Assembly (NCBI GenBank): GCA_902782125.1
Contig: CACZMA010000003.1
Location: forward strand, 87,429 to 151,428
Reading direction: 5' to 3'
DNA: 64,000 bases
Source: Oscillospiraceae bacterium
GTDB lineage: Bacteria > Bacillota > Clostridia > Saccharofermentanales > Saccharofermentanaceae
Below, piece by piece: positions 4,279-14,000 of the stretch (position 1 is the first letter of the stretch; the number at the start of each line of letters is the position of its first letter). The notes under the pieces were generated by a model that searched no databases, had not been told where the DNA came from, and saw nothing but the letters and a program-made list of their open reading frames with translations. A program made the translations under genes and the position numbers.

Positions 4279-7200
4279 TTAAATTCTGTCTCTGTCGAGC
4301 TCGAGCTTAGCTGCTGCTTCCCTGTCCTGCTCGTCGAGGATCGCATCCTTCTCCTTAACGGCCTCGAGGTAAGCGTTCTCGAATAGAGCCTCGTCAGAAG
4401 CTTCGCTTCCGTACTCGTGACCTGTGATGAGGTTTGCATTCTCTCTGATAACAGGAACTGCCGTGATATCGTTGTGAGCCTTGATACCTGTACCGGCAGG
4501 GATGAGGGAACCGATGATAACGTTCTCCTTGATACCTGTGAGGTTGTCTGTCCTGCCCTTGATGACTGCGTCTGTGAGGACCTTCGCAGTCTCCTGGAAG
4601 GATGCTGCAGCCATGAAGGAATCAGCAGCGGTAGCAGCCTTGGCGATACCGAGGAGGATGATGTTGCCCTTTGCGGGTGTAAGACCCTGCTCCTCGCAAT
4701 CTCTGTTCTTGGAGATGAAGTTATACCAGTCAACAGTAGTACCTGTCATGAAGCCTGTGTCGCCCGGTTCATCGATCTTGACACGTCTCATCATCTGCTT
4801 TGCGATGATCTCGATGTGCTTGTCGTTGATGTTAACACCACCGCCTGAGTAGTAAACCTTTGTGATCTCGCTGATGATGTACTTCTGAACGGCACGGATA
4901 TCCTTAACCTTGAGGATCTCCTTAGGATCGATCTTACCGTCGATGATCTGATCGCCGGCTTCGATGAGCTCGCCGTTCTTAACTGTCAGCGTAGCGTGTG
5001 AAGGAACCTTGTACTCAACCTTCTCGATCGGGTTGCCCTTTGCATCGAGGATAGGCTGTGTATCTGCATCGTATACAGGTGTAACGACAATGGTCTTCTG
5101 CTTTGTCTTCTCATTCTCAACGATCCTGACACTACCGGGAACAGAAGAGATGATACCGTGACCCTTAGGATCTCTTGCCTCGAAGATCTCTGTAACTCGA
5201 GGGAGACCCTGAGTGATATCTTCACCGGAAGCAGCGATACCGCCGGAGTGGAACGTTCTCATCGTAAGCTGTGTACCAGGCTCACCGATGGACTGAGCAG
5301 CAATGATACCGACAGCCTCACCGACTGCGACCGGACGGCCTGTAGCGAGGTTGATACCGTAGCACTTTGTGCAGACACCGCGTCTGGAACGGCAGTCGAA
5401 TACGGATCTGATCTTGATCCTGCCGAGGTGCTGGATCTCTGTCTCTGAGAGGACCTTGCCGGAAGCCTCTGCCTCAGCGAGCTTGGCTGCAGCCTTCTCG
5501 TCTCTCTCGGCGATCTTCTCGGGAGTCTCCTCGCCCTTGATCTTGACGGAGTCAATGACCTTCTGGCGTGCTTCTCTTGCAGCTTCCTTAGCCTTATCAA
5601 CGGAATCGCAGATAGCCTCTGCCTTGAGTGCGTCGATGAGCTCGTCCTTTGCAACGATGACTTCGCCTGTCTGGAGGTTCATGATGTCCTCAGCGGCATA
5701 ACGGCCATACAGACGATCGTAAAGTGACTTGATAACGTTGACCTTGTTGTTGGATGTCTCGGTGATCTCCTTGACCCATGTGAAGTCATCGGTACCGCAG
5801 TCTGTCTCTGTAACAACGACGGACTGGGATACGTCAACGAGACGACGTGTAAGGTATCCTGACTCAGCGGTCTTGAGAGCCGTATCGGAGAGGGCCTTAC
5901 GTGCACCGTGTGATGAGATGAAGAACTCGAGCACGTTCATACCTTCACGGAGGTTGGACTTGATCGGGATCTCGATAGTAGCACCGGTCGTATCCTGCAT
6001 GAGTCCACGCATACCTGCGAGCTGCTTGATCTGTGATGTGGAACCACGGGCACCGGAGTCAGCCATCATACGGATAGGATTATAGATATCAAGGTTCTCC
6101 ATGAGGGCCTTGGTGATATCGTCTGTTGTCTTCTCCCAGACCTTAACGACCTGCTTATGGCGCTCGTTCTCTGTGAAGAAACCTTCCATAGCAGCTTCGT
6201 TGATCTCGTCGACCTCAACGTCACCTGCAGCGATCATCTTATCCTTGATGTCAGGGATGATCATGTCTTCGATACCGATGGAGATACCGGAGATCGTTGA
6301 ATACTTATAACCCATTGCCTTTACGTCATCGAGGAATACTGTTGTTCTCTCGAGGCCGTGAACTGCAATGCATCTTGCAATGATCTTCTCGAGCTTCTTC
6401 TTGCCCATTGCAAACTCTGTCTTGCCGCCCTTCTGATCAGCGATCTTAGGGAAGTCGATCTCGAGCTTGAGGTGATTCTCGGGGATGGATCTGTCAACGA
6501 ATCCGAGGTCCTGAGGAACTACCTCGTTGAAGATGAATCTGCCGAGTGTGGACTCTACGAGACCTGTCTCGATCTTGCCGTCGATCTCTCTTGAGACGCG
6601 GACCTTGATCATTGCATGAAGTGTGAGCTGGTGCTGATCGTAAGCCATGATAGCTTCGTCAACGGATGTGAAAGCCATACCCTCACCCTTGTCGCCCGGA
6701 ACTTCCATCGTGAGATAGTAGCATCCGAGGATCATATCCTGTGAAGGAACAGTGATCGGCTTACCGTCCTGAGGCTTGAGCAGGTTGTTGGTAGAGAGCA
6801 TGAGCAGTCTTGCCTCTGCCTGTGCTTCAGGAGAGAGCGGTACGTGTACAGCCATCTGATCTCCGTCGAAGTCGGCGTTGAATCCGGTACATACGAGCGG
6901 ATGGAGCTTGATGGCACGGCCTTCTACGAGTACAGGCTCGAATGCCTGGATGGAAAGTCTGTGGAGCGTAGGCGCACGGTTCAGGAGTACCGGATGATCC
7001 TTGATGATGTCTTCGAGGACATCCCAGACCTCAGGTGCTCTGTTGTCCACGTCCTTACGTGCTGTCTTGATATTGAGCTTGTCATTTGTGTTAACGAGCT
7101 TCTTGATTACGAAGGGCTTGAAGAGCTCGAGTGCCATCTCCTTAGGAAGACCGCACTGATGCATCTTGAGCTCAGGTCCGACGATGATAACCGAACGGCC

Positions 7201-8244
7201 GGAGTAGTCAACACGCTTACCGAGCAGGTTCTGTCTGAAACGTCCCTGCTTACCCTTGAGCATGTCGGAAAGTGACTTGAGCTGTCTGTTGGAAGTAGCG
7301 GATGTGGAGCCCTTGACAGGTGTGCCGTGACGGCCGTTGTCGATAAGAGCGTCAACTGCTTCCTGGAGCATTCTCTTCTCGTTCCTTACGATGATCTCAG
7401 GTGCGCCGAGATCGAGGAGCTTCTTAAGACGGTTGTTTCTTCCGATAACTCTTCTGTAGAGATCGTTAAGATCTGATGTAGCGTAACGGCCGCCGTCGAG
7501 CGGAACCATAGGACGGAGTTCCGGAGGAAGAACCGGGATAACATCCAGGATCATCCACTCAGGCTTATTGTCGGAAGCCTTGAAAGCCTCGCAGATCTCA
7601 AGTCTCTTGTCGATCTTGAGTCTTCTCTGTGTGCTTACGGAACCTGCCTTCTCAGCTGTCAGTTCTTCGATGATGGCATCAACGTCAACCTGTGAGAGCA
7701 GGATCTTGATAGCCTCAGCGCCCATTCTTGCGTCGAAGCCCTTCTTGCCGACCTTAGCCACTACCTGCTTGTACTGGTCTTCAGTCAGGATGTCCATCTT
7801 GTTGAGACCTGTCTCTTCCTGGTTGCCCGGATCGAGTACGATGTACTTTGAGTAGTAGAGAACGCTCTCGAGCTGCTTTACTGTCAGGTCGAGGATGGTT
7901 CCGATCTTAGAAGGCTGAGTCTTGAAGTACCAGATGTGTGATACGGGGCAAGCGAGCTCGATGTGGCCGAGTCTCTCACGGCGGACGGTGTTCTTTGTTA
8001 CCTCAACGCCGCACTTGTCGCAGATCATTCCCTTGAATCTGATCTTCTTGTACTTACCGCAACGGCACTCCCATGACTTCGTGGGTCCGAAGATCTTCTC
8101 GCAGAACAGACCGTCTACTTCAGGTCTCTGTGTACGGTAGTTTATAGTCTCAGGCTTCTTGACTTCACCGTGAGACCAGTCTCTGATGGTCTGGGGTGAA
8201 GCAAGCTGGATGCTTATTTTTGTTATACGATTTGTGTCGTTCAT
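4279..8244 (-). CDS. rpoC: RNA polymerase beta' subunit
   Basis: CRCGKY zinc site, [12 protein letters not shown] active site, [12 protein letters not shown] trigger loop. Start moved to ATG 8244 after GGAGAC RBS. Confidence 0.99.
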
Positions 8245-8330
8245 ATATCTGAAGTCTCCTTCCAATTCGCGCTGCCGTCAGCTTCATCTTAACGGCGGCA
8301 AGGCCTTGCTATTACTTGATTGTCTCCGGA

Positions 8331-11300
8331 TCAGAGGTCGTCACCGTCACCGTCGAAATCATCACCGTCGAAATCATCCTCTGCGATATTGCCGAGCTCG
8401 TCGGATTCAACGAATCCCTCGCTCAGGATATCTGAAGGAACGACCTCATCTTCACCATCAACGTTACGACGCATTGCTTCGTCCATCTCGCTGATAGACT
8501 CGAAGGAATCCTTGTTCTCAGGTGTGTATTCCTTATCGTCGGTATATGTTCTGACATCAAGCGCAAGAGCCTTAAGCTCGTTGACAAGGACGTTGAAGGA
8601 TTCGGGGATACCCGGCTCCGGTACGTTCTTGCCGCGGATGATGGCATCGAAAGTCTTCGATCTGCCCTCGATATCGTCGGACTTGACCGTAAGGATCTCC
8701 TGGAGAGTGTGAGCTGCGCCGTATGCTTCGAGCGCCCAAACTTCCATCTCACCGAATCTCTGTCCGCCGTTCTGGGCTTTACCGCCGAGAGGCTGCTGAG
8801 TAACGAGTGAGTAAGGTCCTGTGGATCTTGCGTGCATCTTATCGTCAACAAGGTGGTGCAGCTTCATGTAGTACATAACGCCTACCGTTACCCTGTTCTC
8901 AAAAGGCTCACCGGTACGGCCGTCGTAGAGGACTGTCTTACCGTCTGAGTCGATGCCTGCAAGCTTGAAAGCGTCTGCGATGTCGTTCTCGTTCGCACCG
9001 TCGAAGACAGGTGTTGCGATCTTCCAGTTGAGCGCTCTTGCAGCTCTTCCGAGGTGTACCTCGAGGAGCTGGCCGATGTTCATTCGTGAAGGAACGCCGA
9101 GAGGGTTGAGGCAGATATCAAGTGTTGTACCGTCCGGGAGGAAAGGCATATCTTCCTCAGGAAGGATCCTGGAGACGACACCCTTGTTTCCGTGACGTCC
9201 TGCCATCTTATCGCCGACAGAGAGCTTACGCTTCTGAGCGACATATACGCGGACTCTCTTGTTTACGCCGTTCTTGAGATTGCCGTTGGTCTCCTTTGTG
9301 GAAACAACGACATCTACTACTACGCCGCCGCCGCCGTGAGGAACACGCTTGGAGGTATCCTTTACCTCACGTGCCTTCTCACCGAAGATAGCCTTGTAGA
9401 GTCTCTCCTCTGCTGTCTGGTCTGTCTCACCCTTAGGCGATACCTTACCGACGAGGATGTCTCCGTCCTTGACCTCGGCACCGATGATAACGATACCGTC
9501 TTCATCGAGGTTGGAGAGAGCTTCATCAGAGACGTTGGGAACCTCTCTTGTGATCTGCTCGGCACCGAGCTTTGTCTCACGTGCCTCACACTCATGCTCT
9601 TCGATATGGATGGATGTATAAACATCATCTCTTACGATTCTCTCGTTTACGAGAACGGCGTCCTCGTAGTTGTAACCTTCCCAGGTCGTGAAGCCGATGA
9701 GAACGTTTCTTCCGAGAGCGAGCTCGCCGTTGTCCGTAGCAGGACCGTCAGCGATCGTATCGCCTGCCTTGACCTTCTCACCGATCTCGACGATAGGGCG
9801 CTGGTTGATACATGTGCTCTGGTTGGATCTCTGGTACTTGGAAAGTGTGTACTTATCAACTGTGCCGTCCTTAGCGGTTACTTCGATCCTGTCAGCGGAT
9901 ACGAAGGAGACAACACCGTCGTGAAGTGCAACGATACATACACCGGAGTCCTTAGCGGCACGGTATTCCATACCTGTACCGATGATAGGTGCCTCAGGCT
10001 TGATAAGAGGTACGGCCTGACGCTGCATGTTCGAACCCATCAGCGCACGGTTCGCGTCGTCGTTGCCGAGGAACGGGATAAGGCTGGTGGATACGGATAC
10101 GAGCTGCTTAGGAGATACGTCCATGTAGTCGATCTGTTCGGGATCGAGCTGCAAGAACTGGTCGAGGTGACGGCAGACGATCTTGTTGTTCTCGAACTTG
10201 CCGTTATCGTCAACGGGCTCGTTAGCCTGAGCGATGTTGTAATCATCCTCTTCGTCGGCAGCCATGTATCTTACTTCGTCAGTTACGACCAGCTTCTCCT
10301 TGTCGAACTTTCTGTAAGGAGTCTCGATGAAGCCGTACTTGTTGATACGTGCATAGATAGCCAGAGACGTCATAAGACCGATGTTCTGACCTTCCGGTGT
10401 CTCGATCGTACACATACGTCCATAGTGTGTGGGGTTGATATCACGGACTTCCATTGAAGCTCTCTCTCTGGAGATACCGCCGGGGCCGAGAGCCGAAAGT
10501 CTTCTCTTGTTCGTAAGCTCAGCCAGAGGGTTGTTCTGGTCAGCAAAAGCCGAGAGCTGGGAAGAACCGAAGAATTCACGGAAGGAAGCTGAGAGAGGTC
10601 TTGTGTTAACAAGGCTCTGTGCCGTAACGACTTCGCCGTCCTTGCCGGAGATCTGGGAGATCCTGTCTCTTGTGTTCTTCTCAACACGAGCGATACCTGT
10701 ACGGAGCTGGCTCTGGAGAAGCTCGCCGACAGATCTTACACGTCTGTTGCCGAGGTGGTCGATGTTATCGATCCTGCCTACGCCTCTGTGGAGTCCGAGG
10801 TAGTAGGAAACGAATGCATAGATATCATCCGTTGTGAGGCAGCGGGGCATGAGCTCTTCCTTACGCTCATAGAGCGCGTTCTCGAGATATCCTGCGATAT
10901 CCTTGCCGCCGTTAGCTCTTGCATCCTCGATGATCTCGCGGAGAATGGATACTCTTACCTTCTCGTTTACGGGTGTGTTGTTGATATCGAAGTTCTTGAG
11001 GTCCTTCTTTGCAAAGCTGTTCCTGATGAATGCATCGGGATCAACTCTGCCGTTACCGATGACCTTGAGCGGCTTCTCATCGAAATCATCCTCATCGGCA
11101 GCCTTAACGAGCTTCCTGGGGAAGATGATTACGTAAGGAACGCCGGCCTCGTCGATCTTGTTAGCGATCTCGGGAGTAACGACAACGCCCTTCTTGGCAA
11201 TGAGCTCACCGTCTTCTGTAGTAACATTCTCGGCGATCTTCTGGTTGATGATCCTTCTGCCGATCGCGAGCTTCTTATTGAGCTTGAAGATACCTACACG

Positions 11301-12272
11301 GTCGAGATCATATCTGAGCGGATCAAAATATGTCTTAGCCATGATGTTCTCGGCATTCTCAACAGAGAAAGGCTCGTTGTTACGTATCTTCTTGAAGAAC
11401 TCGGACAGAGCTGCAACGTAGGGATCAGCCGCATCCTTTGTATCGTCCTTCTCGAGTGTCATCCTGAGGCACTCTTCGTCACCGAACATATTGATGATGT
11501 CCTCGTTTGTTACGAGGGGATTCTCTTTGTTAAGGCATCTGAGGAATACTGACAGAGGGATCTTGTGGGACTTGTCCACAACGATGTTGATGAGCTGATA
11601 CTCATCAGGCTCCTTGGAAACGTCAGCACCCTTTGCAGCCTTCTCCTTTGCGGAGATCTTGTTCTCCTTCTCGTTCTCCTCGATGAGGATCCATGAGCCC
11701 TTGTAAGGAATGAGTTCCGCAGTATAGATGCGGTTACCCATCTTGGATCTTGCCTCGCCGTAGTATGCTCCCGGAGATCTTACGATCTGGTTGATGACTA
11801 CTCGCTCGGCACCGTTGATGATGAATGTACCCTGATCAGTCATGATAGGGAACTCACCAACATAGATAGTCTCTTCGGAGACTGTATTATCTACTTTATT
11901 ATTCAGCTGAACCTTGATGCTGAGTCTGGCAGCATAGTTGCTGTCATTCTTCTTGCACTGGTCGATGACATCTGCCTTTGAAAGCTTAACGGTTCCATTG
12001 GACTTATCCTTCTTGGAACCCGATCTGTCTTCCTTGCCGGAAGGATCACACGGTGTGTCAGGATCGAAGATCTTATCAATAAAATAGATCTCGTACTTGC
12101 CCTGATCATCGGTAACCGGAGAAACTTCATTGAAAACCTGCTGCATTCCTTCGTCAATGAACCACTGATAGGACTGCCTCTGATTCTCGATGAGGTTAGG
12201 TACTTCGATTACTTCGTTGATCTTGGAGTAAGACTGACGTTCTGTCTTGCCTTGTTTAACGGAATGGACCAT
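8331..12272 (-). CDS. rpoB: RNA polymerase beta subunit
   Basis: [50 protein letters not shown] motifs. Confidence 0.99.
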
Positions 12273-12461: not shown

Positions 12462-14000
12462 TCAATAGGTAAACTGTTCCATCCATCCTTTGTTTACTTC
12501 GTAAGAAGGATTGTTGGCCTGGAGCTGGGTTGCCCAATCGTTGATGGCGGATACGATGAGCTGGTTCTTGACCTGATACTGCCAGCTGGGCTCATTGCAC
12601 TCGAAGTAGTAAACAAGGACCCTTGTCTTATCCTGTGAGAGGATAACGACATAGTCACCCTGGACTCTGGCGGGATCAAAGAGCCATTCGCCTGCCTGGG
12701 TAATATCCGTAGCGAGAGGGGTAGCGCCCTCTACCGTGCTGTTGCTCTGGAATGCAGTGATCTTGGCGCCGGGCACATAACCGCCGCTGATCATCTCGTT
12801 GCTGTCGGATGAATTAGCCTTGCAGATGCTGTAGAAAGTCAGCGAATCAACAGGACCGGAGATGATCTGAGCTGCCTGAGCCTCTGCCTCAGCCTGAAGC
12901 GTGGCAAAGTCTGTTGTCTCAAGATCAAGTGTTGTCGTGAACGGCAGGGTCATAACTCTGTAGGATACCGTAGCAGCATCATCGAGGTAGACCTTGTCAA
13001 AACGGACTACATAGTAACCTGTCTCGGTCGGGATCATGGCTACGTCGCCTTCCTGAGTGTCAGGACCGAAGACGAAGTCGGTGAAGCCTTCAACAAAGTA
13101 ATCAGTGTACTGAGCCGTATAGCCTTCGCACCTTGTCGGATCGCCGTCGTCCTCGAAGCTTGCAAGTGCGCCTTCGTCACCCTTCTCCGTGAGATATGCG
13201 ATAACGGCATCTCGGAATGCCTCCGGGCTGTCCGGAGCGGCAACAACGATCTTGGATGCTGCAGCCTCTGCTTCTTCCATACCTGTTACGTTGCCTTCTG
13301 AGTCAACATCGGCAGGGATGAAGAAATAGTTGAAGTCAGCGAGCTGGTAAGCTGTGGGGTCTGCATCGAACGCAGCCTGGATCTCTTCCTGAGTAGGCAT
13401 GAACTTGAACTGTCCGATGTATTCCTGATACTCGCTCGTGAGGATCTCCTTGGCAAGGATATCCTTATAGACTCTTAAAGACATACCTGTTCCGTATACC
13501 TGGAACAGATACTGGTCGACAGACTGATATCCGTAGAGCGCAGCCATCATCTCGATGTTCTCGCACTGCTTGTCTGCGATCAGGGCAGCCTGCGAATACT
13601 GGAGGAATCCGTCCTGCTCAGCCGCACGGTTGATGAGGATCTGATTCATTACCTGCATACCTACCTGCTGGAGGATCATGTCGCGGTATGTCTCGCCTGT
13701 GGCGGGATCGTATACTTCATCGAGCGTGTCTCTCGTAACATAGCCGTACTGTGAGTACTGCTGGAAGACTTCGCTGAAGTGATAATTCGTCTCGAGGACA
13801 GATACGCTCTCTACCTTCTGGAGCGTAACGCCGTCAGGTGCGGTCTCATAGACTGTCATGCCCGGCAGAAGCTGCGGGATGATACCTGATATATAAATAA
13901 ACCAACCTATGACACATACGGCTATAACACCGATGGTAACGCCGAGAGCTATCTTAACATTCTTGGAACTGCTCTTATGAGTTTTGTTGTTCTTTGCCAT
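12462..14000 (-). CDS. Membrane-anchored acidic SurA/PrsA-like (PPIase-type foldase) surface protein
   Basis: Basic N-terminus plus TM helix, long helical SurA-like region, two parvulin-like segments (e.g. TETGYYVVRF). Family call is by resemblance only. Confidence 0.55.
   Translation of the reverse strand: MAKNNKTHKSSSKNVKIALGVTIGVIAVCVIGWFIYISGIIPQLLPGMTVYETAPDGVTLQKVESVSVLETNYHFSEVFQQYSQYGYVTRDTLDEVYDPATGETYRDMILQQVGMQVMNQILINRAAEQDGFLQYSQAALIADKQCENIEMMAALYGYQSVDQYLFQVYGTGMSLRVYKDILAKEILTSEYQEYIGQFKFMPTQEEIQAAFDADPTAYQLADFNYFFIPADVDSEGNVTGMEEAEAAASKIVVAAPDSPEAFRDAVIAYLTEKGDEGALASFEDDGDPTRCEGYTAQYTDYFVEGFTDFVFGPDTQEGDVAMIPTETGYYVVRFDKVYLDDAATVSYRVMTLPFTTTLDLETTDFATLQAEAEAQAAQIISGPVDSLTFYSICKANSSDSNEMISGGYVPGAKITAFQSNSTVEGATPLATDITQAGEWLFDPARVQGDYVVILSQDKTRVLVYYFECNEPSWQYQVKNQLIVSAINDWATQLQANNPSYEVNKGWMEQFTY

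Follow-up and report, generated by a model that had tools for sequence, protein, structure and literature searches.

A many-residue, stepwise series of rifampicin-pocket substitutions in the single-copy RpoB of a rumen Clostridia genus

Introduction

Functional variants of the rifampicin pocket of RpoB, the beta subunit of RNA polymerase (RNAP), are frequent in nature (Yang et al., Nature 2023, PMC10550828), and a recent survey of 18,127 species predicted 8% of them to be intrinsically resistant, 144 of these being Clostridia (Bolourchi et al., PNAS 2025, PMC12337354). In that survey, Asn at position 526 (526N; E. coli numbering is used throughout) was natural in 546 species. Here, we analyse the rpoB gene of a rumen member of the Clostridia that is contained in a stretch of 64,000 nucleotides (the window; GenBank assembly GCA_902782125.1, contig CACZMA010000003.1, positions 87,429 to 151,428 of the forward strand). 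Natural rifampicin-pocket variants are already known; the particular value of this lineage is that many residues were replaced in steps and that intermediates are still alive. No new mechanism of resistance is revealed by it.

The closest described systems are the lineages with natural 526N among the Mollicutes, Erysipelotrichales and Bifidobacteriales (PMC12337354, PMC10550828), which are predicted, and in the case of the Mollicutes reported, to be intrinsically resistant to rifampicin. As in these lineages, the protein studied here is a single-copy housekeeping RpoB with a lineage-fixed Asn526. Unlike in these lineages, 526N was here the second step of a series in which Q513, I572 and a second shell of residues were also replaced, and the series belongs to a subgroup of one rumen Clostridia genus in which intermediates survive and resistance is only predicted. 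The same residue pair, 526 and 572, is changed in another Firmicute, Staphylococcus aureus (H481N+I527M; PMC10604019); that pair is recent and was selected by therapy in a pathogen, whereas the pair described here is ancient, fixed across many species and accompanied by additional changes. Natural Gln at P567 is found in Epsilonproteobacteria and Aquificae (Yang et al. 2023), which, like the lineage studied here, include organisms of the digestive tract, but in our lineage it is joined with alleles that are "fast" in E. coli. Lineage-fixed pocket substitutions also occur in Spirochaete and Streptomyces lineages (531N) and in Amycolatopsis (522D/531N), where they confer natural rifamycin resistance; the residues differ, S531 being kept here, and the producers (Amycolatopsis) have an obvious selective cause that is missing in our lineage. 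Finally, the rpoB2 genes of Nocardia and Nonomuraea resemble our case in that several pocket substitutions are combined in one RpoB, but those organisms retain a second, sensitive copy, whereas only one rpoB is present here.

Results

The pocket segment, which comprises rifampicin clusters I and II and fork loop 2, spans 10341..10574 on the minus strand (all window features given below lie on this strand) and corresponds to E. coli residues 505-582 and to residues 567-644 of the window protein. Numbering was taken from an alignment with RpoB of E. coli K-12 (NC_000913) and is unambiguous because residues 505-582 align without any insertion or deletion. Compared with canonical-pocket relatives within the genus, the segment carries 15 substitutions. 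Three direct rifampicin contacts are replaced, namely Q513A (codon GCT, 10548..10550), H526N (AAC, 10509..10511) and I572M (ATG, 10371..10373). The replaced second-shell residues are M515A (10542..10544; Gly in the ancestor of the genus), L538I (10473-10475) and F545M (10452-10454) in the fork-loop-2 stretch at 10452..10475, H551N, P560T (ACG, 10407..10409), P567Q (CAG, 10386..10388) and, in the N-terminal rifampicin cluster RVVINQ (E. coli 143-148; 11787..11804), the derived I145V and S147N. In total, the window protein differs from E. coli at 8 of 38 site positions, compared with 4-5 in canonical-pocket relatives; most species differ at fewer than five (Yang et al., PMC10550828).

A first-pass annotation of this DNA had listed Q513A, M515A, H526N and I572M, and the E. 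coli alignment confirms all four at the expected codons; L538I, F545M, H551N, P560T, P567Q, I145V and S147N are additions to that list. M515A is weaker as a resistance change than had been assumed, as it behaves like a rifampicin-sensitive allele in E. coli. The annotation had further pointed to Ile at V146 (ERVVINQ). This residue is present, but it is not specific to the lineage: canonical-pocket relatives read ERVIISQ, and the state is ancestral in the order, so Ile146 is uninformative for resistance. We therefore rejected V146I, an ancestral and conservative change, as a resistance determinant.

We built an RpoB tree after removing the 78 pocket residues and placed the pocket changes on it by parsimony. 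Three clades are nested within each other, each with a Shimodaira-Hasegawa-like approximate likelihood-ratio test (SH-aLRT) support of 100: 30 rows of the alignment have lost Q513, 26 of them have N526, and 24 have the full set of A513, A515, N526, T560, Q567 and M572 (the derived clade). Q513A, L538I, S552P, S553T and P567Q map to the first stem, G515A, Q518N, H526N, F545L and V581I to the second, and D541E, L545M, P560T, I572M and T577I to the third. Surviving stages are the canonical pocket, A513/Q567, S513/N526 and the full set; two of the stages are represented by isolates, as YRB3002 is an intermediate with A513/G515/H526/Q567 and YAD3003 carries the full set. The three stems make up 5.4% of the tree length, yet they hold 15 of the 59 pocket changes (3.2 expected; binomial P = 4e-7). 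In the crown of the derived clade, by comparison, a single pocket change was found versus 6.6 expected (P = 0.008), with members only 82-87% identical to each other outside the pocket. Judged from these sequences, the pocket appears to have been remodelled stepwise in an ancestor, and purifying selection seems to maintain it today within a large subclade.

The replaced positions are among the most constant of the protein. Q513, L538, H551 and P560 are invariant in 78 of 78 diverse genomes, and M515, H526 and I572 are kept in 77 of 78; all seven are replaced in the window RpoB, which goes far beyond chance variation. Within the genus, a search with a back-translated pattern of 17 residues detected the identical pocket motif in 37 of 100 species genomes, with many synonymous differences between them. 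Together with the strongly supported clade of 24 rows, this makes 526N a lineage-wide natural state. The same 78-residue pocket was found in 27 protein clusters (ENA, NCBI, JGI, Logan), including that of the window and YAD3003, and only one of them shows a single difference (T573N). Among 401 sampled Clostridia genomes, Ala513 was present in 5, and these belong without exception to this genus (1 of 216 genera). Because the change from Gln (CAR) to Ala (GCN) requires two nucleotide changes, Q513A is missing from catalogues of single-step mutants, and a literature search for Q513A with rpoB found no paper. The first-pass annotation had proposed a fixed state rather than a single selected mutation and had suggested aligning RpoB of relatives as a check; the single-copy gene, the motif shared across species and the one nested, stepwise origin all agree with this proposal.

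Some of the substitutions also occur outside the series. H526N alone arose independently in several other Clostridia lineages, accounting for 12 of the 83 background sequences (P0078, P0081, P0084-87 and P0096-101), and L031, from another family of the order (genome G027), is a further such case. P0051 belongs to the genus and acquired I572M and H551N independently, in a pocket that is otherwise canonical.

The gene itself is a housekeeping rpoB. The open reading frame at 8331..12272 (1313 amino acids; profile and structure matches) scores 1548.7 bits against the RpoB equivalog model NF001616 (cut-off 896) and 1514.4 bits against TIGR02013 (cut-off 801), and its closest solved relatives are RNAP beta chains of Clostridia, with end-to-end alignments at E = 0. 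rpoC, encoding beta' (1328 amino acids), follows directly downstream at 4279..8265. A six-frame search of the organism's own genome (2.14 Mb, 97.8% complete) returned one rpoB, which rules out a second, resistant paralogue of the rpoB2 type. The host is a rumen member of the Clostridia whose close relatives have been deposited as Saccharofermentans sp. or as "Ruminococcaceae bacterium" YAD3003, a cultured rumen isolate that NCBI places among unclassified Oscillospiraceae.

Changes at otherwise conserved positions extend over the whole polymerase. In RpoB, 494 columns are at least 95% conserved in the 83 background sequences, and the derived clade has fixed a different residue at 21 of these. 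The changed columns are concentrated in the rifampicin regions (7 of 61, versus 14 of 426 elsewhere; odds ratio 3.8, P = 0.0096) and include P372N and G373N (11376..11381) in the conserved RPGEP motif, which we take to be the beta gate loop. Of 481 beta' columns that are otherwise invariant, 20 differ in the derived clade; among the changes are R312H, R314T and T317K, presumably in the rudder region, as well as N274G, G433S and A456G, the last beside the catalytic NADFDGD motif. The N-terminal third of RpoB holds two long, lineage-specific insertions. The first, of about 23 amino acids (11967..12035, window residues 80-102), is present only in the clade without Q513, intermediates included, and the second, of about 22 amino acids (11598..11666, window residues 203-225), only in the derived clade, which also gained an additional insertion of 4 amino acids. 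RpoB length rises from about 1250 amino acids in canonical relatives to about 1280 in intermediates and about 1307-1322 in the derived clade, and the protein has an acidic C-terminal tail.

For each subunit, we related the stem between the derived and canonical clades to the diversity within clades, with the pocket masked in RpoB. This ratio was 0.91 for RpoB, 1.08 for RpoC, 1.23 for RpoA and 1.14 for SigA, whereas it ranged from 0.06 to 0.49 in 14 of 15 control proteins, which include GatA, GatB, GyrB, RecF-like and ParA-like proteins, S4, S13 and L17 (exact rank test of RNAP against controls, P = 0.003). Measured as outgroup distance, derived minus canonical clade, the difference was +0.031 for RpoB and +0.052 for RpoC, compared with -0.010 for GatB. 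rpoA, sigA and rpoBC are located on separate contigs. Horizontal replacement of rpoBC was rejected, since the derived clade is nested in the genus and the unlinked rpoA and sigA are equally long-stemmed. Because the stems of alpha, beta, beta' and sigma-A are unusually long relative to the 15 controls, the pocket seems to be where a remodelling of the whole polymerase is most strongly enriched. Separately, the sigma region 3.2 finger reads HLVDFI in the whole genus and HLGDFI in the outgroups of the order (G000:C15:12885-13595, L139); this difference coincides with M515G at the base of the genus.

The probable consequence for rifamycins can be estimated from data in other bacteria. Yang et al. 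(Nature 2023, PMC10550828) covered every single substitution at E. coli RpoB positions 510-537 and 563-572; nearly all changes at 516, 526 and 572 led to high-level rifampicin resistance, and natural 526N is described there as a fast polymerase with high-level resistance. In the same E. coli data, the log fold change under rifampicin (fc_rif) is +2.33 for 526N, which places it in the top tier, +0.70 for 572M, and +0.11 for 513A, within the range of the classic resistant alleles 513K (+0.11) and 513L (+0.24). The values for 567Q and 515A are -0.65 and -2.67; the latter resembles a sensitive allele, as such alleles and stop codons score around -2 to -3. In S. aureus, resistance stays at a low level with H481N by itself (PMC5784246), whereas H481N+I527M, the equivalent of E. 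coli H526N+I572M, gives a rifampicin minimal inhibitory concentration (MIC) of >128 ug/mL (PMC10604019). Because 526N, 572M and 513A score as resistant in E. coli and the S. aureus pair reaches this MIC, reduced rifamycin binding and poor inhibition by rifampicin or rifaximin are likely by analogy. The window protein also carries 526N (10509-10511), which belongs to the panel of validated resistance mutations that defines the class of RpoB predicted to be intrinsically resistant by Bolourchi et al. (2025). The polymerase had been called intrinsically rifamycin-insensitive in the first-pass annotation; its fixed and lineage-wide nature is borne out, and its insensitivity is likely on the basis of the E. 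coli and S. aureus data. Arr (PF12120) was found neither in the organism's genome nor in the 24 further genomes of its genus, in a search that did not cover Rph, Rox, Rgt or HelR. An Arr-type domain (152 bits) occurs in 1 of 41 relatives, a member of another family of the order (G038:C7:138576-138872).

Directly upstream of rpoB, at 12462-14000, lies a gene for a fast-evolving protein of 512 amino acids with an N-terminal membrane anchor. It shows about 40% identity within the genus and occupies the usual place of rplJ-rplL. A gatB-gatA pair is located further upstream, beyond this gene.

Discussion

The combination of alleles in this pocket is best approached through their effects on transcription in E. 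coli. There, 515A, 526N and 572M are hypersensitive to 5-fluorouracil (5FU), with scores of -5.11, -4.87 and -2.80, respectively, which the authors take as the signature of a fast polymerase, whereas 567Q is resistant to 5FU (+1.37) and bicyclomycin (+0.59) and is read as slow and stringent-like (PMC10550828). In the same study, 513A shows mild resistance to 5FU (+0.62) and carries a cost (fitness -0.73, plate -6.39). The lineage acquired the slow-type alleles before the fast-type ones. Because "fast" and "slow" E. coli alleles are combined in one pocket, the most plausible explanation in our view, and one that is probably correct, is that polymerase kinetics were retuned in a compensated manner throughout the holoenzyme, which would probably have made the enzyme insensitive to rifamycins. 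Slow, stringent-like alleles (567Q, perhaps 513A) would have been fixed first and the fast ones (515A, 526N, 572M) afterwards, in a burst of substitutions and insertions that would have spanned the whole holoenzyme and been most enriched in the pocket. Rifamycin contacts would have been lost on the way through Q513A, H526N and I572M, and a rifamycin need not have been the selecting agent.

Several observations weigh against this explanation or against the predicted insensitivity. The labels "fast" and "slow" come from E. coli single mutants and may not transfer to the background of this clade. The three stem branches were picked after inspection of the data, although the effect is large nonetheless. 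The stem test rests on p-distances from 9-11 genomes, and one of its controls, ribosomal protein S11, has a long stem as well (ratio 1.64 over 122 columns). The tip of the sigma-A region 3.2 finger, GEEEDSHLVDFI, does not differ between the derived and the canonical members of the genus, so that the part of sigma-A facing the pocket shows no direct partner co-change. D516, S531, F514, R529, L511 and L533 are still canonical in the window protein, and some rifamycin affinity may therefore persist. The survey cautions that 526N need not produce the phenotype in every case, since Bifidobacterium carries it without clear enrichment under rifampicin (PMC12337354), and our literature search on Saccharofermentans-like isolates and rifampicin returned no relevant susceptibility report. 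As a side observation on S11, its neighbours S13, S4 and L17 at the rpoA locus (L180; L174-L184 in relatives) have ratios of 0.24-0.36.

The strongest competitor of a compensated retuning is selection by a drug, that is, repeated exposure to a natural pocket binder (rifamycin, sorangicin, kanglemycin or an analogue) under which resistance would have increased stepwise and the other RNAP changes would have offset its cost, which we regard as unlikely yet worth serious attention. Three contact residues were hit in sequence, all by alleles that score as resistant in E. coli, and the 3.8-fold enrichment of pocket columns among the changed conserved columns fits such a history. Compensatory rpoA and rpoC changes after rpoB resistance are well known in Mycobacterium tuberculosis and would account for the changes elsewhere in the polymerase. 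Selection by such compounds has been suggested for other resistant lineages (PMC12337354). Against this, no rumen producer of such compounds is known, and the absence of Arr from all 25 genomes searched in the genus leaves no independent sign of rifamycin pressure. Moreover, the first step, Q513A plus P567Q, is weak under rifampicin and costly in E. coli, and resistance offers no rationale for M515A, P560T or the insertions.

Neutral or nearly neutral drift in a small ancestral population, after which the enzyme may even have stayed drug-sensitive through epistasis, appears to us more doubtful still. It would be in keeping with the small, host-associated genomes (about 2-3 Mb) and the long stem of the whole RNAP, and the authors of the survey allow neutral origins and report failed predictions (PMC12337354). 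However, the long stem is not shared by the controls, the altered positions are invariant across 78 diverse genomes, and the changes are packed on three branches followed by near-complete conservation in a crown that has diverged considerably outside the pocket. Of slightly lower standing, and offered as a long shot, is an arms race with an RNAP-targeting agent of the rumen, of which the pocket series, the co-accelerated alpha, beta' and sigma-A and the insertions would all be the outcome. The agent may be a natural product that binds in the pocket, or a protein of phage or plasmid origin docking close to the RNA-DNA hybrid; if this were true, the clade would signal that gut ecosystems harbour a new class of inhibitors of the polymerase. 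An artefact, a recent laboratory mutant or a Nocardia rpoB2-type second paralogue deserves practically no credence, because the genome is nearly complete with one rpoB and because the identical motif recurs in the genomes of other species and in many independent assemblies and protein clusters.

A compensated retuning of the holoenzyme, with the accompanying loss of rifamycin contacts, leads to the prediction that a widespread, fibre-associated group of rumen Clostridia escapes rifamycins. This would bear on how the effects of rifaximin and rifampicin on the microbiome are read, and it could help to isolate the group selectively. The lineage also represents a natural experiment in rebuilding a near-invariant site that tunes polymerase kinetics, together with the permissive changes elsewhere in the holoenzyme, and two of its stages are already covered by the cultured isolates YRB3002 and YAD3003.

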